From positions 51,269 through 115,268 of the forward strand of contig CAZYVU010000003.1 of NCBI GenBank assembly GCA_964651435.1: DNA of 64,000 bases, written 5' to 3'. Positions 3,535-49,260 of the stretch are shown piece after piece (within the stretch, counting starts at the first letter, position 1; each line of letters begins with the position of its first letter). Position numbers and translations under genes: made by a program. This DNA is from an uncultured Pseudomonadota bacterium (GTDB lineage Bacteria; Desulfobacterota; Syntrophorhabdia; Syntrophorhabdales; CAYQXL01). The notes beneath the pieces were generated by a model. The model was given only the letters and a program-made list of their open reading frames with translations, was not told where the DNA came from and did no database searches.

Positions 3535-4730
3535 ACTACGAAACGCTTATAGGGCTGCGCTACCTGAGGTCAAAGAAGAAAGGGGCCTTCGTCTCCTTTA
3601 CGACTTGGATCTCCGTGGTCGGCATTGCCATCGGCGTCATGGCTCTCATCGTCGTTATCGCCGTTATGACGGGTTTCCAGGACGAAATCAAGGACCGGAT
3701 CCTGAGCATTAACCCCCATATTCTCGTTATGAACCTGAGCGGCGAGATCAGGGATGCCGAAAAGGTTGCCGAGACGGCGAGAAAGAGCAAGGACGTTGAA
3801 CACGCCTTTCCCTTCATCGCCTTTCAGGCCATGGTCCAGAGCGGCAGGCAGCTTTCCGGTGTAGCCGTTAAGAGCGCCGACCCCAAGGATATCCGGTTCA
3901 TGAAAAGGATCATCAGGGAAGGGTCGCTCGATGCCCTCTCCACCAAGGGAAGTATCCTCATCGGCAAGGAACTGGCAAAGAGGCTGGGGCTTTTTGTCAA
4001 CGACAACTTTGTTCTTCTCATCCCCTTCGGCGGTTACTCGCCTATGGGTGCCATGCCGGAAACGGTGCGGGTGAAGGTGGGCGCTATCTTCGAGACGGGC
4101 ATGTTCGACATCGATAACACGATGGTTTTCATGCCCATCAAGGATGTGGAGCAGATATTCGGCATCGGCGCCACAGGTATAGAGGTGAAGCTGAAGGACG
4201 TGTACCGGGCAGATGCGGTGCGCAAGGATCTCTTAAGAGAGTTGGGCCCGGCGTTCTTCGGCAGGACCTGGATCGAGATGAACAGGAATCTCTTTTCTGC
4301 CCTCAAGCTCGAAAAACTGATCATGTTCATCATCCTTGCCCTCATCATCCTCGTGGCCAGCTTCAACATCATCAGCTCCCTCATCATGACGGTTATGGAG
4401 AAGAAAAAGGATATCGCCATTCTGAGGGCCATGGGGGCGAGATGGCAGAGTATCATGAAGGTTTTTATGGCCCAGGGCCTTGCCATCGGGATCGCAGGGG
4501 TCCTCCTCGGTTTTGTGAGCGGCTTCATCATGTGCGAGATCCAGCAGCGATACCAGGTGGTGAGGCTCCCCGAGGACGTCTACAACATGGGTGCCCTGCC
4601 CATGAAGATCAGCATCTTCGACATGCTCATCGTCGTCGGCGTCACCATGCTCATCTGTGTTGTATCGACCCTCTATCCGTCCTACAAGGCGGCAAAGATA
4701 GACCCCGTGGAGACGCTCCGCTATGAGTGA
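3531..4730 (+). CDS. lolE: Lipoprotein-releasing ABC transporter permease (LolC/E type)
   Basis: GLRYLRSKK N-terminus, VIAVMTGF, WIEMNRNLFSALKLEK, IAILRAMGA, P..LRYE end; followed by lolD. Confidence 0.92.
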   Translation: MNYETLIGLRYLRSKKKGAFVSFTTWISVVGIAIGVMALIVVIAVMTGFQDEIKDRILSINPHILVMNLSGEIRDAEKVAETARKSKDVEHAFPFIAFQAMVQSGRQLSGVAVKSADPKDIRFMKRIIREGSLDALSTKGSILIGKELAKRLGLFVNDNFVLLIPFGGYSPMGAMPETVRVKVGAIFETGMFDIDNTMVFMPIKDVEQIFGIGATGIEVKLKDVYRADAVRKDLLRELGPAFFGRTWIEMNRNLFSALKLEKLIMFIILALIILVASFNIISSLIMTVMEKKKDIAILRAMGARWQSIMKVFMAQGLAIGIAGVLLGFVSGFIMCEIQQRYQVVRLPEDVYNMGALPMKISIFDMLIVVGVTMLICVVSTLYPSYKAAKIDPVETLRYE

Positions 4731-5406
4731 TGCCGTGCTGGAGACGAAGGGGCTCGTCAAGGCCTTCCGGAAGGACAGCGTGGAAATCCGCGTCCTGAAG
4801 GGCATCGACCTGGCCGTCAATGGCGGCGACTTCATTACCATCATGGGCCCGTCGGGCGCCGGCAAGAGCACGCTGCTCTACCTGCTGGGCACCCTCGATA
4901 CGCCCACGGAGGGTGACATCCTTTACCGCGGAAAGAGCATCCGGGCCTTCACCCGCGACGAGGAGAACCGCTTCCGGAACGAGCACGTCGGCTTTGTCTT
5001 CCAGTTCTACCACCTGCTTCACGATTTCAACGTCATCGAGAACATCACCTTCCCGCTCCTCATCCGGGGCGTCAAACCGGCCGAGGCGACGGCGAAGGCC
5101 GAGGCCTTTCTGGAGATCATGGGCCTCGGCGGCCGCCGTACCCACAAGCCCGGAGAACTCTCCGGCGGAGAGCAGCAGCGCGTCGCCATCGCCCGGGCTT
5201 TGGTAAATGAGCCGGAGATCATCCTTGCCGATGAGCCTACGGGCAACCTGGACCGCAAGACGGGCCACGAGGTGCTGAGCTATATCCTCTCTGTTCGGGA
5301 CCGTCTCTCGGCGGCCCTCATCCTCGTCACCCACGACCCCGAGATCGGGGCGCTCGGGAGCCGTCGCCTCCACATGGTCGACGGCGAGATCTCGTCAGAA
5401 ACGTAA
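4723..5406 (+). CDS. lolD: Lipoprotein-releasing ABC transporter ATPase
   Basis: Walker [33 protein letters not shown]; overlaps the permease stop. Confidence 0.92.
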
Positions 5407-30444: not shown

Positions 30445-31689
30445 ATGAGCAAGATACTGATTATTGACGACGAAAGAGACATTCTGGATAGCCTGTCGTC
30501 GGTCCTGGAGGACGAAGGCTTTACGGTGGTGAAGGCGGCTAACGGTGTCGAGGGCCTGTCCGTGTTTGCGAGGGAGCAGCCCGACCTGGTGCTCCTCGAC
30601 GTGTGGATGCCTGAGATGGACGGCCTGGAGGTGTTGAGCCTCATCAAGAAAGAGGCCGGTCATGCGGTGGTCATTGTCATTTCCGGCCACGGAACCATCT
30701 CCACCGCTGTAGAGGCCGTCAAGATGGGCGCCTATGACTTTCTGGAGAAACCATTGCACGTCGACAAGGTGCTCGAGGTGATCAACCGCGGGCTCGCAAG
30801 GGACGTGCGGTCCCCGGAGCCCGTCGATGACTTCAAGATTGAGGCGGCAGGCGGTCCCCAGCTTTTCCGGCAGCGAACGATCCGGAAGAGCACCGTCGTG
30901 TATGGTATGGGACTCCACTCGGGGACGAAGACGGGCATGATACTGCTTCCCATGCCCGAGAATACGGGGATTGTCTTCGAACACGTGCCCGACGGGGAGC
31001 GCATCCCGGCCTACGTGGATTATGTGTACTCTGTGGGATACGCCTCATCTGTGAAAGGCAAGAACTGTGTAGTGAGGACGATCGAGCATCTTCTGGCGGC
31101 ACTCCACATGTACGGTATCACGAACCTTCTTGTGAAGGTTAGCGAAGAGGTGCCCATCTTTGACGGGTCGGCCGCTGAGATGTGCGGAAAGATCGAGGAG
31201 GCCGGCCTGACGGACCAGTCCTCAGGCATAGAGCCGGTAAGGATCGACCGCACAGTGGCGCTTCCCGGCCTTTCCGACGGACGCCATCTGTCCATCGAGC
31301 CCTGCGACAGGTTCGAGGTCGACTATACGCTCGATCACGCCAAGCCGATCGGCTTCCAGAACTACCACTTTCGGGGTGATGCCGCGGATTTTGTCCGCGA
31401 GATAGCACCTGCAAGGACCTTCGGCTTCATCAAGGACTTTGAGAGGCTTTCAAGCATGGGGCTCGCCTCGGGGGGGCGGATCAACAACGTCATTATCCTG
31501 AGCGACGAAGAGGTGGTCAATACGAAGCTCCGGTTTGCCGATGAGTTTGTGCGGCACAAGATCCTTGACGTGGTAGGCGATTTCTATCTGCTCAACAGGC
31601 CTGTGCTGGGCAAGGTTGTGGCCAGGCAGACAGGTCACCTCGAAAACATCGGGCTGATTCGGGAGCTGAAGCGGCTCTACCTCAACTGA
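30445..31689 (+). CDS. lpxC: Response-regulator receiver fused to UDP-3-O-acyl-GlcNAc deacetylase LpxC
   Basis: REC: IDDE, VLLDVWMP, SGHG, DFLEKP; LpxC: QRTI..GMGLHSG, TIEHLLAAL, PIFDGSA, APARTFGF, RHKILD, TGH. Confidence 0.92.
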   Translation: MSKILIIDDERDILDSLSSVLEDEGFTVVKAANGVEGLSVFAREQPDLVLLDVWMPEMDGLEVLSLIKKEAGHAVVIVISGHGTISTAVEAVKMGAYDFLEKPLHVDKVLEVINRGLARDVRSPEPVDDFKIEAAGGPQLFRQRTIRKSTVVYGMGLHSGTKTGMILLPMPENTGIVFEHVPDGERIPAYVDYVYSVGYASSVKGKNCVVRTIEHLLAALHMYGITNLLVKVSEEVPIFDGSAAEMCGKIEEAGLTDQSSGIEPVRIDRTVALPGLSDGRHLSIEPCDRFEVDYTLDHAKPIGFQNYHFRGDAADFVREIAPARTFGFIKDFERLSSMGLASGGRINNVIILSDEEVVNTKLRFADEFVRHKILDVVGDFYLLNRPVLGKVVARQTGHLENIGLIRELKRLYLN

Positions 31690-34665: not shown

Positions 34666-37503
34666 TTAAAGGCCGCAGAGGCAGTTAAAGGCGCAGCCGG
34701 GGCAGGCGCGGTCATCGAAGGGGGCAAAGGAAATGGCGGGGTTTCTGAGGTGCGTGAGAACGGTGGCCGCCATGGCCATAAAGTGTTTTTGAACCCCTTC
34801 CTTCTCGTCTCTCTCGATCCCTTTGAAAAGGTGCTCCTCTTTGTTTGTCTTGAGGAGGGCCAGCACGGCGTCCATGTCGGCAACAGGAACGGACGCCCGC
34901 TCCGCGTAGACCTGCACGTAGAGGGGAAGCTGCAGGCTCGGCACGCGGCAATGGATTTCTTCCATGGAGGCCGGGTCTACTTGGCGAAGCGCCTTTGAAT
35001 ACTGGGGTCCGCCGCCGGTCTTGTAGTCAATGATCGTGTGCATTCCCGTGGCGGGAACATAATCAACCCGGTCGATGCGGCCGCGAAACCGGACCTCCGG
35101 GCCAAGGGCCGGGATGGAGCCCTCCACGGGCTCTTCGAGGTGGGCTATGGTGACGGGACCATCCAGCTCATCGATATGTTTCTGGAGAAATGCTTTCAGC
35201 TTGTGCTCGGCTACTCTCCTGAAGAGATAATAGTCTCCCGTCACGATCCTGCCGTCGAAGTGCCTGTTAAGGGCTTCGTCAAGGTTCCTCAGGAGCGCCG
35301 GCCGGTCATCCTTGGCAAGCGGTCTGTTCAGGTATCCGGCAAAGGTATCGAAGAGTATGGCATGGATAATCGTCCCGCGGTCGCTGTCCTCGATGTCGCT
35401 GGAAAGAAGCTGCTCCTCTTCGAAGCGCAGCATGTGGCGATGGTAAAAAAATACAGGGCAGCGCACGTAGTCGTCTATGCTGGACGGAGAGAAGGTCTTT
35501 CCCGCCAGCGCACGGATGATGGCGGGGGTCTTGGGAAATGAAGGCGGCTCCTTTTTTGTCCTCAGGCGTATCTTCTGGGTGGACCTTTCCACCGTCACCA
35601 CATCCAGGCTGCCGAGGGACCGTTCTTTTTGCCAAATGAGCATTTCGATATAGCGGCTTCTGGGCTTGTCTTCGGCCTCCACGTAAATGAGATGGGCCTC
35701 TCTCGCCCCCGCGACGAGTCGCTGAAAGTAGTAGCGGAAGACCTCTTCATGTTCCTCGGCGGCAGGCAGGCCCAGGCTCTCGTAGACGCCCACGGGGACC
35801 AGCGGGTCGATGTGCTTTGCCGCCGGTATGACCCCCTCATTGATGTCGAGAATAAGCACGGTCTCGAAGCGGAGGCTTCTTGTTTCAAGGAGGCCCAGTA
35901 TTTCGAGGGTCTCCAGAGGAGTCGTGTCGAAGGGAACGCTGAGATGCTTCAGGTGCCTCCGAAGGAAATCCCTAAGCGCCCTTCCGTGCTCCTCATCGTT
36001 GTCGTGAAACCGTTCTGTAGCGATGCGGGATCGCTTGATGTCCTCCAGGGCTTCGATGAGGCGGGTAAAAATCTCGCCGGAGAGTACGTATGATTTGAGC
36101 TCCGTGTTAAGCATCAGGAACTCGAACGCCTCCTGCAGCCGAAGCGACAGTTCGGCCAAGTCGGACGGTCGCTCAAAGGCGCGGAAGAAGACGTGGTGAA
36201 TCTTCTTGAGGCCTTCGACGACAGCACCGTCCCTCTCGCACAGTTCGCGGCCCCTGGGCGTTCGCTTGAGCCAGGAGACCGCTGCCTCTTCCACATCGTC
36301 GACACCAAGGAAGGCTTTTCCGTAAAGGGGGCTCGACGCGTCCCGGGTCAGCCACTCCTTCACTGCTGACAGGAGGCGCCATAGCAGAGGGGTGAGCCGA
36401 GCATTCTTCACAAACGGATGAAGGATGATGCCAAGATAGTCTGGGGCGGCATAGACGGACCTCTCGGCTGTGCCGTCCTGGGCGCGGAGGAGGGCGTCCA
36501 TGAGGCTGAACAGTGAGGTGCGTGAGAGTGGATATGCGATGGAAACGTTATAGTTGTCGTGCCATCGGTCGACGGCAAAGGTGAGAAGGGGAAAGAGCGT
36601 TGCGGGCAGGGGAAGAACGACGGCGGTTCTGTTCGGCGGCGCCGTGCCCAGAATCGATGCTGCGTGAAGCGCCTCGGCATGGGTGTCGAAGCCCGAGTAG
36701 ATCCTGACCATCGTATCGCCCTTGGCCATGTTCCTGTCCAGGGGTTCCACGGGAGCACCAAGATGGCGGACAAGCTCGTTAAGGACGGGCCATTCTCCCG
36801 GATTGCCTTCCAAAATGATCTCCGCCTGTCCCACCTCCCAGAGCCTCCTGACGATCCGGCGTTCCACCTCCGTCGTGGCGAAGAGGCCCGCAAAGATAAC
36901 GGCATCGAAGTCCGGCAGCGACGGTGCGTCCAGAGCCTCCAGAGCCTTCAGGTACTTGTACCCCCGCGTGAGGCAGCGTTCCGTTTCGAGAAGCGCATGA
37001 AAGGCGCTGCGAACTGCTACGATCTGGCGCAGCAACAGGTTGACGCTCTCGGGAACATCGTATCCGATAGCCGCATTCTCTTCCACCGAAAGAAGCCTTT
37101 CCTGCGGCACGTTTTCCACGTCCACGGACTCGATGAAAGAGAGGAGGTGGCTACCCCAGGGGAAGAAGTCGCCAAAATTGTCCTTTGCAAAGAGCGACCC
37201 ACTGAGGCGTAGTGATCTGACGGCCTTGAAAAGCATCCAGACGGCATCGGGCTGATCGACATCTGAAAGGCCGGGCCAGCGGCTCGCTACAAGATGATCT
37301 ATGAATCCATCGACGGAGAAAGACGCCGGCGGGAAAAACGGCGCCTTGCGCGTTGCGGCCAGGGCTTCCTTGAGGTAAAGCCCCGGACGTTTTCCGGGAA
37401 AGATTATAGCCGTACGGTTCAGCGGAACCTCGAGGCCTTCAAGAAAGTCCCTGACGGCCTCGATGAAGTCGCACCCCATGGGAACGATACGGACAGGCTT
37501 CAT
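34666..37503 (-). CDS. addB: AddB-like PD-(D/E)xK nuclease subunit
   Basis: Degenerate helicase scaffold, SPSSIDDYVRCP, GRIDRVD, IIDYKTG, terminal CPGCAFNCLC; coupled to addA. Confidence 0.85.
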   Translation of the reverse strand: MKPVRIVPMGCDFIEAVRDFLEGLEVPLNRTAIIFPGKRPGLYLKEALAATRKAPFFPPASFSVDGFIDHLVASRWPGLSDVDQPDAVWMLFKAVRSLRLSGSLFAKDNFGDFFPWGSHLLSFIESVDVENVPQERLLSVEENAAIGYDVPESVNLLLRQIVAVRSAFHALLETERCLTRGYKYLKALEALDAPSLPDFDAVIFAGLFATTEVERRIVRRLWEVGQAEIILEGNPGEWPVLNELVRHLGAPVEPLDRNMAKGDTMVRIYSGFDTHAEALHAASILGTAPPNRTAVVLPLPATLFPLLTFAVDRWHDNYNVSIAYPLSRTSLFSLMDALLRAQDGTAERSVYAAPDYLGIILHPFVKNARLTPLLWRLLSAVKEWLTRDASSPLYGKAFLGVDDVEEAAVSWLKRTPRGRELCERDGAVVEGLKKIHHVFFRAFERPSDLAELSLRLQEAFEFLMLNTELKSYVLSGEIFTRLIEALEDIKRSRIATERFHDNDEEHGRALRDFLRRHLKHLSVPFDTTPLETLEILGLLETRSLRFETVLILDINEGVIPAAKHIDPLVPVGVYESLGLPAAEEHEEVFRYYFQRLVAGAREAHLIYVEAEDKPRSRYIEMLIWQKERSLGSLDVVTVERSTQKIRLRTKKEPPSFPKTPAIIRALAGKTFSPSSIDDYVRCPVFFYHRHMLRFEEEQLLSSDIEDSDRGTIIHAILFDTFAGYLNRPLAKDDRPALLRNLDEALNRHFDGRIVTGDYYLFRRVAEHKLKAFLQKHIDELDGPVTIAHLEEPVEGSIPALGPEVRFRGRIDRVDYVPATGMHTIIDYKTGGGPQYSKALRQVDPASMEEIHCRVPSLQLPLYVQVYAERASVPVADMDAVLALLKTNKEEHLFKGIERDEKEGVQKHFMAMAATVLTHLRNPAISFAPFDDRACPGCAFNCLCGL

Positions 37504-40500
37504 AGGCTGAGCACCCTGCGTTCATCGACGTAAAGAAGAAACTTCCGTATCTCTTTGCCGGGATAGATGGCGGAAAGGAGCTGTCCGTAGCGCATGATCT
37601 GCGATTTGTGCTCAGCGCTTTCCGTTTCGCCCGTTTTGAAATCGATGACATCGATATGGTCTGCCGACACGATGACCCGATCGATCTTGTGCGTCTGTCC
37701 CGCGCCGTCGACCACCTCCAGTTCCGTGAGCACCGTCTCCCCTGCCCCCAATCGAAAAAAGGCTTCGAACCGGGGGTCCGAGAGGCACCCTTTCAGGAGC
37801 GACGCGACCTCTTCCGGGTCCGCCGCCCCCCGATGGCGGGCAAGCCCGGAGGCGACAGCGTCCCTCACCGTTTTACCTCCGTCTTCGCCCAGCGAGGCTA
37901 CGAGTGAGAGTATGTAGTGTATCAGATCGCCCTTTCTGCGAGCGGCCAGGCGGGCCCGCGAAAGGCCCGATCCGTCGGCGAGCTTGGACCGCATTCTATC
38001 TATCCAGTGAACGCCGTTGCCGGGAAGCCACGCCGCTTCGGGTGCACGGACCGGCGGCCGCTCCGGAGAATCGTGAGCCGAAGAGGGGGCTGCGACGTGC
38101 GGCGACAGGGGGGGCTCGATGCCGAAGGTGCAGGCCCTATCGGTCGTGCGATGTGCGGCCTCGCTGAGGGCAAAGCAATGATCGATGAGAAAGTTCCTTT
38201 GGCGTTTCGAGTCGGTGAGGAGGACATACAGTTCCCCCTTGGCCCTTGTAAGGGCCACATAGATACCGTTCAGCTCGTCGAGAAGGTATTCCGCCTCCCG
38301 CTGAGATGCGATCGCATCCAGTGCCGGCGAGCATGCCCGTAACGCTGCATTGATGTACAACAGGTGTGCCGATTGGCCCTCCCTGACGACGTACCGATTC
38401 TTGTCGGCGGCGTCTGATTGGGCGAAGTTCGTAAGCTTCAGAAAAGGAAGGATGACAAGGGGAAATTGAAGCCCCTTGGCCTTATGGATTGTGAGGACCT
38501 TGACGGCATCCGTTCCTTCAACGGCCTTCAGCAGAAACCTCTCCTCGCCTTCGCCGGTGCCCCGGTCATCGGGGTTTCCGTGCTCCCTCCAGAATCGCAC
38601 AAAGGTGCTGAGGCTGCCCGTGCTGCTGTCATCCGTTTGTTGCAGCATCTCGCAGAGGTGGAGCAGATAGGGCCGGTCATCGGGGAAGTTTTCCAGCACC
38701 CGGCAGCGCTTCAAGATGGTGAGGAGGAGCTCGTAGAGGGGGAAAAAGCCGGCATTTCGAACAAAGTAGGCCAGATGCTTTTCCCACAATGCAGGAAAGT
38801 CCCTTTGCAGAAAGCCGGCGAGGGGTATCCTCTCTTCCTCGAGACGCACCGTCTCGATCCAGCCGTGAAGGCATCCGCAAGGAAGCCCGGTAAGCTCTGT
38901 GAATATTTCTCCCTCAAGAAACGTGGCGAGCGATAGATCGTCGTCTATGGAATCGAGGAAGGAAAGAAGGGCCAGAACCTCCTTAACCAACCGATTGTTG
39001 CGCACGTCGACGGTCAGGTCGGATTCGACGGCTATGCCCATGGTGAGCAGGAGGTTGGCGACAAACTCCATCTCATCCCTCCGTCGGAGCAGGATTGCAA
39101 TGTCGGCGTCACGGATGGTCCCCCGGGAGCGTATCGCCCCGACAAGTTCCCTCATCCGCTCTCCCACGACACGGAACCGCTCATCCTTGGAGAATTGGTC
39201 TTGGACATCGTCATCGTCTCCGGGCACGACGACCCTCTCTACGGAAACATAGCCCAGGCCCGCGTTGGCACGTGTAAAGTCCTGGGCCGTATCATCATAG
39301 ACCGCCAGTATCCGACCCACCCCCTCGTGGTGGTCGCCAAGGATCCGCTGCAAGGTCTGCCGGAGGTTGTCACGATGAAAGAGGAGGTTGTTGAAGGCAA
39401 CGATATGCTCACCGCTGCGGTAGTTCGTGGTCAGGGCAATTTCCAGAGGGCTGAAGGAGCGGTAGCGGCTGAGGAGGTGGTCCACAAGGCCCGTATCGGC
39501 GCCGCGCCACCGGTAGATCGACTGTTTCTTGTCTCCTACGACAAAGAGCGTGCCCCCCCTGCTCAGCGCCTCGTCGGCAAGGACGGCTATGTTGTGCCAT
39601 TGCAGGCCGTTCGTGTCCTGAAACTCGTCGATGAGAAAATGGTGGTACCGGTCGGCAAGGCTGTAATAGACCTCCGGCACAAAGGAGGATCGGCCGACGA
39701 CGGCGCGAAGGAGCCGGTTGAGCTCCTCGATGAGGAGAAGACGCCTCCGGTACGTCAGCTCCTTTGTCAGGAAACCCTTGAAGACCCCGTAAATGTCCAG
39801 ATAGGACGAGAACTTGGAAGCCGCAAGCAGTTCTCCGTGGGACCCCAGGGCTTCTCGAAACTCTCTCCACCGGTCTTCCAGGGCCTCTTCGGGAAGCGCA
39901 CTGGCCTTGGTCACGGAAGCGGTGACGCTTGGCCTTTGGAGAAAGGCGCTGACCTTGAGCTGCGGGCCCGACGGGGGGGCGAACTGCTCAAGGGCCTTGA
40001 CGAACCCGGCATGGAGCTTCAGCCCCGGCGACGAGGATATGTGATCCCTGAGAGAGGCGACGAGGGACTCCAGGCGGCGTCCCGACTCGGTCATGCGCTT
40101 ACGCGTCGGCGCCGGGTTAAAGGCGGCGCTCTCCTTCGATTCCTCCTGCCACAAGAGGTCCATCATGGACCTCAGGAAGGCCTTTGGCACCCAACTGGCC
40201 CTCTCGCCCTCGAGCTCCAGGTAATTCGTCACGAAACGATCAAACTGCCGCCGGACGCGCTCGTCGTCAAGGATGTGCCGGAGTGTTTCGTTGAGCACGA
40301 TGTCGAAGTAGTCCGACGATCGCGTTGAAATCTCGAAATCAGGGGGCAGTTGAAGCTTGAAGGCCGAGGCCCTCAGGGTCAGATGAACGAAACTGTCTAT
40401 GGTGCTTACCTTGAAATCGTAGAAATGGCGCAACAGGTCATCGAATACCCTTGCCAGCCGTTCGGCCGCCGCTGCCTGAAGACGCTCCGTCCCCGTTGAG

Positions 40501-40781
40501 GGGTGGACCCCTTCGCCTTCGGTGAGCAGAAGCGTTAGGGGATTTTCCGCGCTATTGTCAAAAGAGATGCCCAGGATGACCCGTTTTATCCATTCGATAA
40601 TGCGCGAACGCATCTCTGCCGCGGCCTTGTTCGTAAAGGTAATGGCAAGGATGTTGCCGGGCCCGCACGGCTTCATCTTTTGGCCGAGCATGTCGGCAAG
40701 AAGTATGGAGAGGTAGCGACGGGTGAGGCTGAATGTCTTGCCTGACCCGGCCGAGGACTTGAGGGCTATGAACTGACTCAT
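37500..40781 (-). CDS. addA: AddA-like UvrD helicase-nuclease
   Basis: SAGSGKT, ILAITFTNKAAAEM, IDEFQDT, VGDKKQSIYRWRG, TIHKAKGL, YVALTRA, IDRV..IDFKTG. Confidence 0.92.
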   Translation of the reverse strand: MSQFIALKSSAGSGKTFSLTRRYLSILLADMLGQKMKPCGPGNILAITFTNKAAAEMRSRIIEWIKRVILGISFDNSAENPLTLLLTEGEGVHPSTGTERLQAAAAERLARVFDDLLRHFYDFKVSTIDSFVHLTLRASAFKLQLPPDFEISTRSSDYFDIVLNETLRHILDDERVRRQFDRFVTNYLELEGERASWVPKAFLRSMMDLLWQEESKESAAFNPAPTRKRMTESGRRLESLVASLRDHISSSPGLKLHAGFVKALEQFAPPSGPQLKVSAFLQRPSVTASVTKASALPEEALEDRWREFREALGSHGELLAASKFSSYLDIYGVFKGFLTKELTYRRRLLLIEELNRLLRAVVGRSSFVPEVYYSLADRYHHFLIDEFQDTNGLQWHNIAVLADEALSRGGTLFVVGDKKQSIYRWRGADTGLVDHLLSRYRSFSPLEIALTTNYRSGEHIVAFNNLLFHRDNLRQTLQRILGDHHEGVGRILAVYDDTAQDFTRANAGLGYVSVERVVVPGDDDDVQDQFSKDERFRVVGERMRELVGAIRSRGTIRDADIAILLRRRDEMEFVANLLLTMGIAVESDLTVDVRNNRLVKEVLALLSFLDSIDDDLSLATFLEGEIFTELTGLPCGCLHGWIETVRLEEERIPLAGFLQRDFPALWEKHLAYFVRNAGFFPLYELLLTILKRCRVLENFPDDRPYLLHLCEMLQQTDDSSTGSLSTFVRFWREHGNPDDRGTGEGEERFLLKAVEGTDAVKVLTIHKAKGLQFPLVILPFLKLTNFAQSDAADKNRYVVREGQSAHLLYINAALRACSPALDAIASQREAEYLLDELNGIYVALTRAKGELYVLLTDSKRQRNFLIDHCFALSEAAHRTTDRACTFGIEPPLSPHVAAPSSAHDSPERPPVRAPEAAWLPGNGVHWIDRMRSKLADGSGLSRARLAARRKGDLIHYILSLVASLGEDGGKTVRDAVASGLARHRGAADPEEVASLLKGCLSDPRFEAFFRLGAGETVLTELEVVDGAGQTHKIDRVIVSADHIDVIDFKTGETESAEHKSQIMRYGQLLSAIYPGKEIRKFLLYVDERRVLSL

Positions 40782-40909: not shown

Positions 40910-41926
40910 TCAGCGGCCTTCGTAGTCGCCCTGCTGGGTAATACCCGAGAGCACCCACTGCTTGTCCCCCACTTTTCGCGAAAAGGTCCAGTACTCGAGA
41001 AACTTTACGGGGTTGGAGGCGCTTCCCGAAACGACATCGCCCGTGGACTCGCTGACAACGTAGTCCAGAAGACTTGCTGTAAACTTGACCGTTATGTACT
41101 CCTCGCCGCGGTCCTGGGCGGCATCGACGATCTCGACGCTGCGGACTGCCACATTCTCCAGGCGGTTGAACTGCTTATCGGCGACGTACCGGTTTGCGTC
41201 GGCCTGCAGGACGTTGAGCATCTCGGCTGACAAGAGCTGGCGGGCGGGGCCGAGGTCCCGTTTGGTCCAGGCGCTCTGAATCCTGAAGAAGAGATCTTCC
41301 GCCGTTTCCCTGAAGGCGCTTTCGCTGAAACCGGGGTCCATCTCTGCAATATGGCGGAGGCCCCTGCCCAGCCCGTCTCCAGGCTCATCCGCCTCCTGAG
41401 GCTCCCCGGAGTATGTTCCGGCCTGCGGCTGGTCGTAGGCGTACGGTGCGTAGCCGGCGCCGGCGCTGCTCATCTGCATGGCCTCCCGGCGAGCCCGGAA
41501 GCGCTTGACGATGAAATAAACGATGCCGAGAATGACAAGAACGATGATGAGGTCCCCCATGCCGAAACCCCCGGTGCCACCCCATCCGGCCGCCTGACCG
41601 TGGCCACCGAAGAGCAGGCTTCCTATCATCCCGCCCAGAAAGAGGCCTCCAAGACCGTACATAAGTCCCCTTCCGATGCCCGACGAGGGCTGCTGCAGAG
41701 GTCTCTGCTGGGTCATGCCCGACCGGGGCTGCGTGGGTTGCCTGGAGGGAGAGGTGGGCGTTGAGCGCTGGAAGGAGCCCCCCGACGAAAAGCCCCGGCT
41801 TCCCGAGGAGCGTCCCCCGCCTACGCGCGCGTGGACAGCCGTCTCCATGGCCAAGCAGATAAAAAAGAACACGGCAAAACCTAAGACGCAGTATATAAAT
41901 CGGTTTTTTGCAGCCTTTCTTGTCAT
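40910..41926 (-). CDS. Tim44-domain protein
   Basis: ARVGGGRSSG-type N-terminus, Gly-rich TM region, Tim44 core (IQSAWTKRD, EYWTF); start ATG 41926. Confidence 0.88.
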   Translation of the reverse strand: MTRKAAKNRFIYCVLGFAVFFFICLAMETAVHARVGGGRSSGSRGFSSGGSFQRSTPTSPSRQPTQPRSGMTQQRPLQQPSSGIGRGLMYGLGGLFLGGMIGSLLFGGHGQAAGWGGTGGFGMGDLIIVLVILGIVYFIVKRFRARREAMQMSSAGAGYAPYAYDQPQAGTYSGEPQEADEPGDGLGRGLRHIAEMDPGFSESAFRETAEDLFFRIQSAWTKRDLGPARQLLSAEMLNVLQADANRYVADKQFNRLENVAVRSVEIVDAAQDRGEEYITVKFTASLLDYVVSESTGDVVSGSASNPVKFLEYWTFSRKVGDKQWVLSGITQQGDYEGR

Positions 41927-42084
41927 GATAACCCCCTGGGTAGTCTCGTCATTGAGCGTTAAGGATATCAAACACCGGGGGGGCGTGTCAAAAAGGTCCG
42001 GGGCGCCCGTTGCCCCCGCATCTTCTGTTGTCAAAAGGGGGCGACTCCGGCTATGATAAGAGGAAAGCCCTGCGGGAGTAAATC

Positions 42085-45875: not shown

Positions 45876-46118
45876 ATGACGACAAAAGAAAAAGAACTGA
45901 TAAAAACGTATTCTGAGGAAGCTTTCCGGGGAAGAACAATACGGCAGGATCTTCCGGTATGCGACTGCGGCAAGTTATACGACGAGAAACAGCTTTGCGA
46001 AGCACCGGGGGTCTTTTTCAAGGAGCTCGAGGTGTTCGGTAAAACCTATCATCTCATAGAGCCCGTGTGCCCTATCTGCAAGAAGAAGATCCCGGCCAGC
46101 TTCTTTGTTCTTAATTGA
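45876..46118 (+). CDS. Small Cys-containing hypothetical protein (possible Zn ribbon)
   Basis: CDCG and CPIC motifs; fills an intergenic gap, protein-like composition. Confidence 0.65.
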   Translation: MTTKEKELIKTYSEEAFRGRTIRQDLPVCDCGKLYDEKQLCEAPGVFFKELEVFGKTYHLIEPVCPICKKKIPASFFVLN

Positions 46119-46170: not shown

Positions 46171-46620
46171 CTATGACTGGTTGTGAATGCTGCCCAGGCG
46201 CCGTTTCAACTCCATGACGAACTCAAGAGGCGCGTCTACCATCCTTACGATTGTGCGGATGCGCTTGCCGTGAATGATGATCAGCTTGCCGAAGTTGAGC
46301 ATCGCACCCAACGAGGGCTGATAGAGGTCCACAAACGAAATGTCTTTCAGAAGGACATCGTAGTTTCTCCGTAAAAGAAATCCCGTTCGAATGTGGATCC
46401 GGTCGCTGCTGAGGGTGATGGCAGAGCGCTGGTATGTCATATAGGAGATTGCGCCCCAGAGAGCCCCAATGGCCATGAAAACGAGGGCTGCCGTACCCTT
46501 CGACTGTAAGGAGAGTCCCCCGAAGATGAATACCAACGCCGGGCCAAGAAATACAGCCCAGTGGAGGCGCGCCACCACTGTCGGCTTTCCGGATAAGTTT
46601 CCTGATGTCTCATCCTGCAT
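46171..46620 (-). CDS. Bacterial PH-domain (bPH_2-like) membrane protein
   Basis: ARLHWAVF, two TM, DRIHIRTGFL, QPSLGAMLNFGKLII; start ATG 46620. Confidence 0.72.
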   Translation of the reverse strand: MQDETSGNLSGKPTVVARLHWAVFLGPALVFIFGGLSLQSKGTAALVFMAIGALWGAISYMTYQRSAITLSSDRIHIRTGFLLRRNYDVLLKDISFVDLYQPSLGAMLNFGKLIIIHGKRIRTIVRMVDAPLEFVMELKRRLGSIHNQS

Positions 46621-46731
46621 GGTCTTGTAATATAGCACACCTTGGTATATAAGCGTAGGTATCGCACGCAATTGTGCCAGGGTTGTTGAAGGTGCAGAAA
46701 GAGGGTGCGGAAATATGCCAAAGGGGTTGCC

Positions 46732-47406
46732 ATGACCGCTGTAAGCCTCCTGCCCGCAGAATTGAAGGCCGTCGAGGAGCATAAACATTATTTATCCGAT
46801 CAACAGGGAAGGCCGGTAAGCTTTGAGGAGGCGCTCGATGATTTTTTCAGGAACTATCGCAGTGATTGGCTCAGGGAGAAGCAGAGAAGGGACAACGAGG
46901 AGCAGATAAGGGAGATAGAGCGGCACAAGTGGATCGTATCGGAAAGGGTGGGGTACGATATCGGCACGCAGGAGGCCTCGGCCGACTGGATCGAAAAGTA
47001 CGCTCGCATATGGCGCAGCTACAAGGAATCACTGGAGCACAACGGCTTTCTGGAGCTGCGGATGGTCGTCGAGAGAGGAGAGGGGTTACGGGTGCAGAGG
47101 GACTCGCCCTTTCTGAGGACCATTGCTTCCTTTGACTGTGACTGCTATTTCCACAGCCCGGGAATGGAGTACTACAACCTGGTAATGGACGGAAAAGGCT
47201 ATCTTCATGTGAAGTCGATCCTCGCCGTTAAAGAATTTTCTGTGCCGCCGGGCGAGGTGGTTGAGTTCATCGCCACGGGCAGAGAGGCCAAAAAGGCACT
47301 CGACGCCGTCCGGAGGGCCATACGCGAGCCTGGCTCCGATGAAGACCCCTCACCGGCACTGCCGGGAGAAGGGGGCGACATTTCAGAGACGTGGTGCATT
47401 TACTAA
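46732..47406 (+). CDS. Tandem DUF4032-like repeats fused to an HPr-fold domain lacking His15
   Basis: EEHKHYLS and ERHKWIVSE..GYDIG..A..DW repeats; C-terminal GLRV..FLRT..FDCD..KSILAV..GE..IATG.EA..ALDAV aligns with HPr. Confidence 0.75.
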   Translation: MTAVSLLPAELKAVEEHKHYLSDQQGRPVSFEEALDDFFRNYRSDWLREKQRRDNEEQIREIERHKWIVSERVGYDIGTQEASADWIEKYARIWRSYKESLEHNGFLELRMVVERGEGLRVQRDSPFLRTIASFDCDCYFHSPGMEYYNLVMDGKGYLHVKSILAVKEFSVPPGEVVEFIATGREAKKALDAVRRAIREPGSDEDPSPALPGEGGDISETWCIY

Positions 47407-47459
47407 GGTGTTTTCCTTCCCCGGTAATTCTGTTACAATGAAACGTGCAAGGAGGAGCT

Positions 47460-47666
47460 ATGCAGATCGGCGAAATCGAGAAGGGCAAGGACAAGATCAT
47501 TATTTCGATCAAGGAATTCAAGGGCAAACAATATGTCGATATAAGGACCTATTTTACCAATGACGAGGGAGATTGGATACCTACGAAGAAGGGCATTACG
47601 TTTTCCCCCGAAAATATAGACGATGCCATCCGTTACCTGCAGGACGCAAAGAAGCAGTTGGGTTGA
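47460..47666 (+). CDS. PC4/YdbC-family ssDNA-binding protein
   Basis: EFKGKQYVDIRTYF, WIPTKKGIT; AGGAGG RBS; TG-n-TACAAT upstream. Confidence 0.9.
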   Translation: MQIGEIEKGKDKIIISIKEFKGKQYVDIRTYFTNDEGDWIPTKKGITFSPENIDDAIRYLQDAKKQLG

Positions 47667-47745
47667 TTCCACGGAAGCGGCAGGTTTCCGGTATTCCAGC
47701 ACAGGGGTTTGAGACATGGCGGTCATTCAATTCAAAGGAGCATCG

Positions 47746-48195
47746 ATGAAGATCAACTTTACGAAGGCGCAGTACGAAACGCTTATCAAGGCCGTCTATC
47801 TCGGCAACTGGGTGGTCAACTCGACGGAAGGCGAAACGGTGGACGAGGACTTTGACGCGTTGGAAGAGTACATCCTCTCCTTCGCAAAGGACTTCGGCCT
47901 TGACCAATATGTCGAGTATGACGAGGGCGAGAAGAAGTTCTATGCCTCCCGGGAGCTGGAGGAGGGGGAAATAGAAGACCAGATACAGCGCTATGATGAC
48001 TATACCTTCTGGGACAAGCTGATTTTCAACCTTGCCGAGCGGGACCTTATTCGCAAGTACGGTGAGCGCGCGGTGGAGAAGATGGCTGATGCCGATCGTT
48101 TCGAGAAGGAGCAGGAATTTCTCGAAAAATACGAGCAGGAGTTCTCCCGGAACGGGATACGCAATCTCGTCATTAAGGTGAAGGGCGGGTCGTAA
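47746..48195 (+). CDS. Acidic hypothetical protein
   Basis: Long ORF with AAGGAG RBS before ATG 47746; no motif recognised. Confidence 0.7.
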   Translation: MKINFTKAQYETLIKAVYLGNWVVNSTEGETVDEDFDALEEYILSFAKDFGLDQYVEYDEGEKKFYASRELEEGEIEDQIQRYDDYTFWDKLIFNLAERDLIRKYGERAVEKMADADRFEKEQEFLEKYEQEFSRNGIRNLVIKVKGGS

Positions 48196-48224: not shown

Positions 48225-48704
48225 GTGCTGCCTGCGACGGTCGACAAGCTGGAAAAGATCAGAAAGGAGTGCCGGCGCATGGCGACAAAGCGCGCCCTGC
48301 TCTCAGCAACGGCATCCGTCGTGCCGATCCCGTTTACTGATGTGGCTACCGACGTGGTCCTCCTTGGGGAGGTCATTCCGGCCATAAGCAAGCGTTTCGG
48401 ACTGGCCAGGGAGCAGGTGGATGCCTATGATCCCCGGGTGGCGCTTCTCATTTACAATGGGGCAACCCGTCTGGGGGCCCATATGGTGGGCCGGTACGTG
48501 ACGAAGGAGCTGATCTTGAGGGTGCTCGCCAAGGTGGGTGTCCGGCTTACGGTCAAACAGGCGGCCCGCTATGTGCCCGTGGCGGGTCAGGCCGTGGCGG
48601 CGGGCATCAGTTTTTCGGCCATGAAGTTCATCATCAACAACCACATCAACCACTGCTACCGCGTGGCAAAAGGGGTTATTGAGGCCCACCCCTTTACGCC
48701 CTGA
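48225..48704 (+). CDS. Hypothetical protein (DUF697-like: VPIPFTD motif)
   Basis: ASVVPIPFTDVATD, ISKRFGL, YVPVAGQAVAAGISF. Confidence 0.65.
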   Translation: MLPATVDKLEKIRKECRRMATKRALLSATASVVPIPFTDVATDVVLLGEVIPAISKRFGLAREQVDAYDPRVALLIYNGATRLGAHMVGRYVTKELILRVLAKVGVRLTVKQAARYVPVAGQAVAAGISFSAMKFIINNHINHCYRVAKGVIEAHPFTP

Positions 48705-48852: not shown

Positions 48853-49260
48853 ATGAGCGGTGACTATGTAGACCACGACATATTGAGGCGGACGGCCGAC
48901 AGCCTCATCGAAGACTACAAGGAGGAGGGCGAAACGTTCACCGGGGAGAGGGAGGACGAGTTTCGGGCCTATCTGGCCGGGCTCGTCGATGCGGACCCGC
49001 CCACGAACGAACAGATATGGGAGACCGTCGAGGTCCTCATGAAGACCATCGAGGGCAGAGACAGGGAGCTGGCGCTGCGGGCTATCTCCGTGTTTATCGT
49101 CCAGTACATCTCCGGATGCGACCACACGCCGGAGGCCTTCCAGTGTGTGCCCACACTGCTTGAGGTGAAGAGCCACATAAAGGCAGAACACTTTCGCGAG
49201 GCACGGGAGGCCCTTATGGCATTTCTCAACAGGGCCAGGGCCGTCGCCCGGTCGATGTAG
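48853..49260 (+). CDS. Hypothetical helical protein
   Basis: GGAGG RBS, coding-like composition; no motif recognised. Confidence 0.65.
   Translation: MSGDYVDHDILRRTADSLIEDYKEEGETFTGEREDEFRAYLAGLVDADPPTNEQIWETVEVLMKTIEGRDRELALRAISVFIVQYISGCDHTPEAFQCVPTLLEVKSHIKAEHFREAREALMAFLNRARAVARSM

Follow-up and report, generated by a model that had tools for sequence, protein, structure and literature searches.

HPr is among the best-studied bacterial signalling proteins, and the HPr fusions known to us all join it to other phosphotransfer domains. In FPr (EIIA-Fru/HPr), DhaM and the HPr-EI-EIIA multiphosphoryl transfer proteins, HPr lies within a larger polypeptide whose remaining parts are other PTS phosphotransfer domains. 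The textbook His-less regulator is Crh, a single-domain Firmicute paralogue of ptsH that carries Gln at position 15, acts through CcpA and MgsA and is, to our knowledge, confined to Bacilli. Crh is purely regulatory and is phosphorylated by HprK at Ser46 (PMC9631020). The literature searched contained no architecture that joins a helical repeat to HPr, nothing relevant on PF00381 architectures or on the PTS of Syntrophorhabdus, and no paper mentioning DUF4032. Here we analyse a gene in a 64,000-nucleotide stretch of DNA from an uncultured bacterium (the window). Its product, not described in that literature, represents a degenerate form within an HPr-fusion family that has yet to be studied.

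Compared with HPr and NPr (PF00381, TIGR01003), the protein has the fold and the Ser46 motif in common, but it lacks His15, Arg17 and Pro18, carries an 11-residue insert, has a helical module of 104 residues joined to it, adjoins no PTS gene and matches the NCBIfam HPr models weakly, remaining below the cut-off of TIGR01003 (17.1 versus 47.9). With Crh it shares the HPr fold, a residue other than His at position 15 and the Ser46 equivalent; in contrast to Crh, however, it is a fusion protein with Arg at this position, and phosphorylation of its serine is putative. The NCBIfam models of FPr and DhaM weakly match the HPr part of its homologues, yet, unlike in these proteins, the fusion partner is a non-PTS helical repeat. 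The repeat, in turn, resembles DUF4032 (PF13224), with each copy matching the last approximately 40 of the 163 profile positions, but the module is a tandem pair of this terminal motif only and does not match the profile as a whole.

The gene is predicted to encode a soluble two-domain protein (Table 1). ATG 46732 was preferred as the start over an upstream GTG (46705), because a Shine-Dalgarno-like AAAGGGG precedes it by 5 nt and because it coincides with the N-termini of homologues in the family alignment. The C-terminal tail is unique to this protein and probably disordered, judging from the structural model and the alignment. Twenty-one clusters of close homologues share the same architecture at 38-67% identity in a full-length alignment; where named, they are annotated as 'HPr family phosphocarrier protein', and they come mostly from Syntrophorhabdales MAGs. 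The protein itself shows the features of this fusion family, namely two N-terminal repeats, an HPr domain, the insert of about 11 residues and the motif DCD.Y.H...GMEYYN. A species-level scan, using one genome per species and not including the genome of the window, retrieved 65 fusion loci, one per isolate and all in uncultured bacteria. The hosts are Verrucomicrobiota/Verrucomicrobiia, Kiritimatiellia, Syntrophorhabdales, other 'delta-proteobacterial' MAGs and Spirochaetales, as well as Elusimicrobia, FCPU426, Hydrogenedentota and Victivallales.

Table 1. Positions in the window of the gene, its upstream element and the parts of its product.
Feature	Position	Strand	Basis or remark
Shine-Dalgarno-like AAAGGGG	46720..46726	+	5 nt 5' of the ATG; read from the sequence; putative role
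Complete coding sequence of the two-domain protein	46732..47406	+	224 aa plus stop; ORF list and translation
Repeat 1, residues ~5-52, LPAELKAVEEHKHYLS...DDFFRNYRSDWLREK	46744..46887	+	DUF4032 stretch; modelled helices 8-25 and 31 onward
Repeat 2, residues ~53-100, EEQIREIERHKWIVSERVGYDIG...ADWIEKYARIWRSYK	46888..47031	+	Best DUF4032 stretch; N-terminal-only AlphaFold2 model
HPr-fold domain, residues ~105-201	47044..47334	+	Pfam PTS-HPr, AlphaFold2, Foldseek
Degenerate active site R-V-Q-R (Arg120, Val121, Gln122, Arg123) replacing H-x-R-P	47089..47100	+	Family alignments
Family-specific insert of ~11 residues, YFHSPGMEYYN, between HPr strands 2 and 3	47146..47178	+	Alignment to B. subtilis HPr
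Ser162, equivalent of HPr Ser46, motif H-V-K-S-I-L-A	47215..47217	+	Codon TCG
C-terminal tail, residues 202-224	47335..47403	+	pLDDT <50; without counterpart in homologues

A preliminary description of this DNA had aligned the C-terminal part of the protein with HPr and proposed a comparison of its predicted structure with that fold. By sequence, the likeness is faint: Pfam PTS-HPr (PF00381) matches residues 118-198 with 23.5 bits, barely over the cut-off of 23, and sequence matches to HPr entries in the PDB are marginal (E 0.26). An AlphaFold2 model built on a 22-sequence family alignment (pLDDT 83, pTM 0.73) shows the HPr-type order of strands and helices across residues 107-198, with the lowest confidence around Ser162 (mean pLDDT of 65 for block 161-170). 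When this model was searched against the PDB with Foldseek, each of the approximately 30 best matches was an HPr, Crh or NPr entry (TM of 0.7-0.8 when normalised to the target, at a probability of 1.0), including the HPr-HprK complex (1kkl) and Crh with CcpA (1zvv). The strand and helix order together with the Foldseek matches therefore identify the C-terminal domain as a real HPr fold, with its four-stranded sheet on three helices, as the alignment had suggested, and a chance likeness to HPr is ruled out by Pfam, the model and Foldseek alike.

The N-terminal half (residues 1-104) is a true tandem duplication of a helix-loop-helix unit of about 45 residues with the consensus E..AI..HK[WY]..SE..G.D.G...A..DW...YA..WR. 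Profile-profile comparison of residues 5-52 with residues 53-100 gave a probability of 99.1% (E 1.7e-18). Pfam DUF4032 matches the protein in two stretches (E 3.2e-9, 37.3 bits versus a cut-off of 23.8), both of which cover profile positions of about 123-161 only, while the first approximately 120 positions are absent; the better one aligns residues 51-89 to positions 123-161. In the AlphaFold2 model, residues 8-98 fold into three helices (8-25, 31-73 and 79-98) that form an elongated module, and a model of the N-terminal part by itself reached a pLDDT of 95. The duplication and the Pfam matches to DUF4032 and PTS-HPr bear out the earlier view of two helical, DUF4032-like repeats preceding and fused to an HPr domain.

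Searching 1.84 billion representative proteins with a profile of the helical module returned 762 matches at E <= 1e-3. Among the best 150 of these 762, most are stand-alone proteins of 105-150 aa, 76 match DUF4032 and 23 match PTS-HPr. The module is thus widespread and exists mostly as a stand-alone protein of about 110 aa; these proteins are mostly unnamed, and the named ones are 'hypothetical protein' entries, mostly from Planctomycetes. A sequence-profile search of the PDB gave no credible match to the module (the best being a ribosomal L14 fragment, E 0.005), Foldseek found no structural neighbour of the N-terminal-only model in the PDB (best E >1), and a viral structure library held no structural match either. 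The repeat was also seen in other settings: in several copies after a ParB-like DGHHR region (P0165), beside Phage_Mu_F (P0135), beside a SpoVG-like segment (P0128) and beside enoyl-CoA hydratase (P0158); some of these arrangements may be assembly chimeras. In one NCBI MAG (L113), two 113-aa genes lie in tandem (4296-4637 and 5001-5342), the second of which encodes the stand-alone module.

Within the HPr domain, the canonical active site has been replaced at all of its characteristic residues. Arg120 (CGG, 47089-47091) occupies the position of His15, Gln122 that of Arg17 and Arg123 that of Pro18. When the protein is aligned locally with HPr of B. subtilis, Arg120 falls opposite His15 and Ser162 opposite Ser46, at the cost of two gaps (10 and 1 residues) between strands 2 and 3. 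Translation and alignment hence agree with the preliminary description on the substitution of His15 by Arg and on the serine, and the two gaps agree with its insert of about 11 residues. Since the His15/Arg17/Pro18 site is lost, the protein, judged by the residues now present, cannot be phosphorylated on the histidine normally used by Enzyme I; the former statement that it cannot transfer phosphate to sugars holds in the form that it cannot be a His-phosphocarrier.

The insert lies shortly ahead of Ser162 and occurs throughout the fusion family. It contains His141 and Met145, with Cys136 (47137-47139) just ahead of it, and all three residues are invariant in the 22 closest homologues and near-invariant across the family, including its His-less copies (in the species-level set, Cys at the position of C136 and His at that of H141 each occur in 57 of 64 sequences). 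Such conservation might suggest that the domain is still a phosphocarrier, using another residue at or in the insert such as His141 or Cys136. We consider this very improbable: the three residues are equally conserved where the canonical His15 site persists, a pattern that suits residues holding the extra hairpin in shape better than it suits a replacement phospho-site, and we know of no HPr that uses these positions for phosphorylation.

Outside its own branch, the family has largely retained the histidine. Position 15 is His in 56 of 64 species-level homologues, position 17 is Arg in 35 of 64, and position 46 is Ser in 63 of 64, with Thr in the remaining one. Conservation of both the Arg and the Ser had been put forward as a check on the preliminary description; in the species-level set the serine is widely kept, whereas most homologues have His in place of the Arg. 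The His-bearing relatives carry a canonical G-[LI]-H-x-R-P site and exceed the Pfam cut-off, and two of them, P0007 and P0019, score 51.2 and 49.0, respectively, with the NCBIfam HPr-family model, which is above its cut-off of 47.9. Together, the prevalence of His15 and these two scores therefore mark the family as ancestrally a phosphorylatable HPr fusion. In a neighbour-joining tree, the protein (Arg at position 15), P0002 (Arg) and P0003 (Ser) form a His-less clade, with Syntrophorhabdales sequences that carry His as its sister group. L010 and L046-L051, which have Asn, Val, Leu or Asp at this position, form another His-less clade that branches elsewhere, beside the His-bearing L055, and further His-less forms occur among the distant representatives. 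These placements indicate that the histidine was lost independently at least twice in the fusion family, and probably more often. The members of the second clade come from Syntrophorhabdaceae-type MAGs; here, G-T-V-I-D replaces G-L-H-x-R-P and N-V-K-S-I-L-C-P is kept at the serine.

Common descent with Bacillus Crh was considered and rejected, as the tree puts the protein inside the fusion family, beside His-bearing members, and it has two domains. In sequence, it resembles Crh marginally (E 0.016 in a phmmer search of the ORFs of the window). By its position in the tree, the protein is analogous to Crh and outside the Crh lineage, having lost its histidine independently. The preliminary view of a Crh-like regulator thus stands as far as the non-His residue at position 15 and the retained Ser46 are concerned, while as a mechanism it gained no support from the analysis.

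Given the loss of the active site, the HPr domain might be no more than a decaying, functionless remnant attached to an N-terminal module that alone matters. All three active-site positions are changed (H15R, R17Q, P18R), the Pfam score barely exceeds its cut-off and the N-terminal module is found elsewhere as a stand-alone protein. However, the reading frame is intact, AlphaFold2 predicts the HPr fold confidently, and the motifs DCD.Y.H, GMEYYN, VKS and EFIATG are all kept. Between the protein and P0002, identity is 63% in the HPr domain and 74% in the N-terminal module, and in comparisons with P0003 the corresponding values are 45-49% and 60%; other pairs in the fusion family likewise have a lower identity in the HPr domain than in the N-terminal part, and the 45-63% found among the three His-less relatives lies within the His-bearing range. 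Judging from these comparisons, the HPr domain of this clade is still constrained, and decay appears unlikely by a wide measure.

Genomic context was examined for candidate partners. The larger ORFs of the window, which together make up nearly all of its 64 kb, were scanned against Pfam, revealing no EI (ptsI), HprK, EIIA/B/C or other PTS gene among them; a search of the window found no second, canonical HPr. Neither the HprK signature [ILM]E[IV]RG[ILMV]G[IV][ILM] (PMC2937029) nor an EI active-site motif occurs in the window or in 1.3 Mb of retrieved loci, comprising the flanks of HPr-fusion homologues and of stand-alone-module genes, although this is a weak test, as hprK may be unlinked. We then clustered the ORFs within 6 kb of the fusion gene in 64 genome loci and the window. 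No PTS genes lie beside the fusion homologues in the 64 loci, and the best candidate for a conserved operon partner, a SpoU-type methylase, was found at 13 loci only and reflects synteny within one lineage. In 42 metagenome loci and on four long contigs, the neighbours of the stand-alone module are lineage-specific only; they include an ABC exporter and a gene of the inositol-monophosphatase-like kind. As neighbourhoods are conserved for neither the fusion nor the stand-alone module, no partner can be named.

The anatomy and the evolutionary placement of the protein are much more secure than any mechanistic reading. To the reading we favour, we would give an even chance: the family would be a PTS-coupled regulator, and the protein studied here a 'pseudo-HPr' acting through its fold and surface. 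In His-bearing members, the HPr domain would serve as a phosphorylation-sensing PTS input, with the helical module as the output or partner-binding part. In the protein, P0002 and P0003, where the site now reads R-x-Q-R, the HPr domain would have been kept as a 'pseudo-HPr' for binding, which we propose because it is still conserved, and it may act unphosphorylated or, with less certainty, be controlled by phosphorylation of Ser162. A broader and more tentative proposal is that the fusion family comprises unrecognised one-polypeptide PTS-coupled regulators, in which HPr, phosphorylated by Enzyme I and/or HprK, switches a helical effector.

One alternative, which centres on Ser162, is that the protein works as Crh does, with a His-less HPr phosphorylated only at this serine by a kinase of the HprK/P type and partner binding switched as a result. 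The K-S-I-L-A around Ser162 resembles the K-S-I-M-G of B. subtilis HPr, the serine is invariant among the 22 closest homologues, and it is kept in both His-less Syntrophorhabdales clades, that is, in three of three members of the clade containing the protein and in all six aligned members of the other. E. coli HPr, however, keeps Ser46 even though the organism is without HprK. The serine is equally conserved in the His-bearing members of the species-level set, as it is in the HPr of organisms that lack HprK, and Ser162 may for this reason be structural. Across the wider family, the serine is even lost more often where the histidine is missing (7 of 17 His-less versus 3 of 38 His-bearing representatives at 50% identity; kept in 10 and 35, respectively; Fisher p = 0.006). 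Moreover, the insert lies close ahead of Ser162, where the model is of low confidence. That neither the larger ORFs of the window nor the signature scan yielded hprK also counts against this alternative, if weakly, since linkage is unnecessary. Precedents exist in Crh, a His15-less HPr paralogue that is a pure Ser46-P regulator (PMC9631020), and in Gram-negatives with an incomplete PTS, where HprK/P phosphorylates NPr and has been reported in most delta-proteobacteria (PMC2937029). On balance, we regard Crh-like control of the protein as possible but doubtful.

If the 'pseudo-HPr' reading and the wider proposal of PTS-coupled regulators are correct, the conserved joining of HPr with a widespread helical module to which it is unrelated would point to a new output of carbon-state signalling in uncultured Verrucomicrobiota, Kiritimatiellia and Spirochaetales and in the syntrophic Syntrophorhabdales. 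The effector module would be one that also occurs by itself, as a small and abundant protein of Planctomycetes and other PVC-group bacteria, and the protein together with the second Syntrophorhabdaceae lineage would represent natural 'pseudo-HPr' forms in which the histidine input was rewired or dropped. Such natural His-less variants offer a built-in comparison of His-dependent with His-independent functions. For the DUF4032-type repeat, association with PTS signalling would be a first functional lead. We rate the significance as moderate, because the PTS link is a hypothesis drawn from sequence alone.

Several features of the surrounding DNA may be recorded. A 73-aa protein of the PC4/p15 transcriptional-coactivator family (E 7e-16) is encoded at 47445-47666 (+), 39 nt past the stop codon of the fusion gene; the two may be co-transcribed, because no terminator-like site was found on the + strand between them, and the pairing was not seen in relatives. 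On the other side, a divergent gene at 46171-46788 (-) encodes a membrane protein with a bPH_2 (bacterial PH) domain, and its longest ORF overlaps the first 57 nt of the fusion gene, so that its true start is probably an internal Met. Four small ORFs nearby (45876-46118, 47716-48195, 48225-48704 and 48853-49260, all +) had no Pfam or NCBIfam match. A role in anti-phage defence was rejected for the fusion protein, for which the PADLOC scan was negative; the ORF at 48225-48704 gave weak PADLOC matches to the candidate systems PDC-S29 and PDC-S30 (E 9e-4).

Elsewhere in the window, ORFs encode RodA/FtsW, a GH18-like protein, Liv-type and TRAP transporters, tRNA synthetases, FBPase and aldolase, in addition to AddAB-type helicase-nuclease genes. 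The latter form an AddB/AddA-type pair at 34666-40781 (-) and 40910-42034 (-), consisting of a PD-(D/E)XK nuclease and a UvrD helicase plus nuclease, and adjoin a gene for a Tim44-like domain protein. Finally, in a single ORF at 30445-31689 (+), a response-regulator receiver (residues 4-113) is followed by a complete LpxC deacetylase domain (residues 143-408), an arrangement hinting that phosphorylation controls lipid A synthesis at its first committed step.
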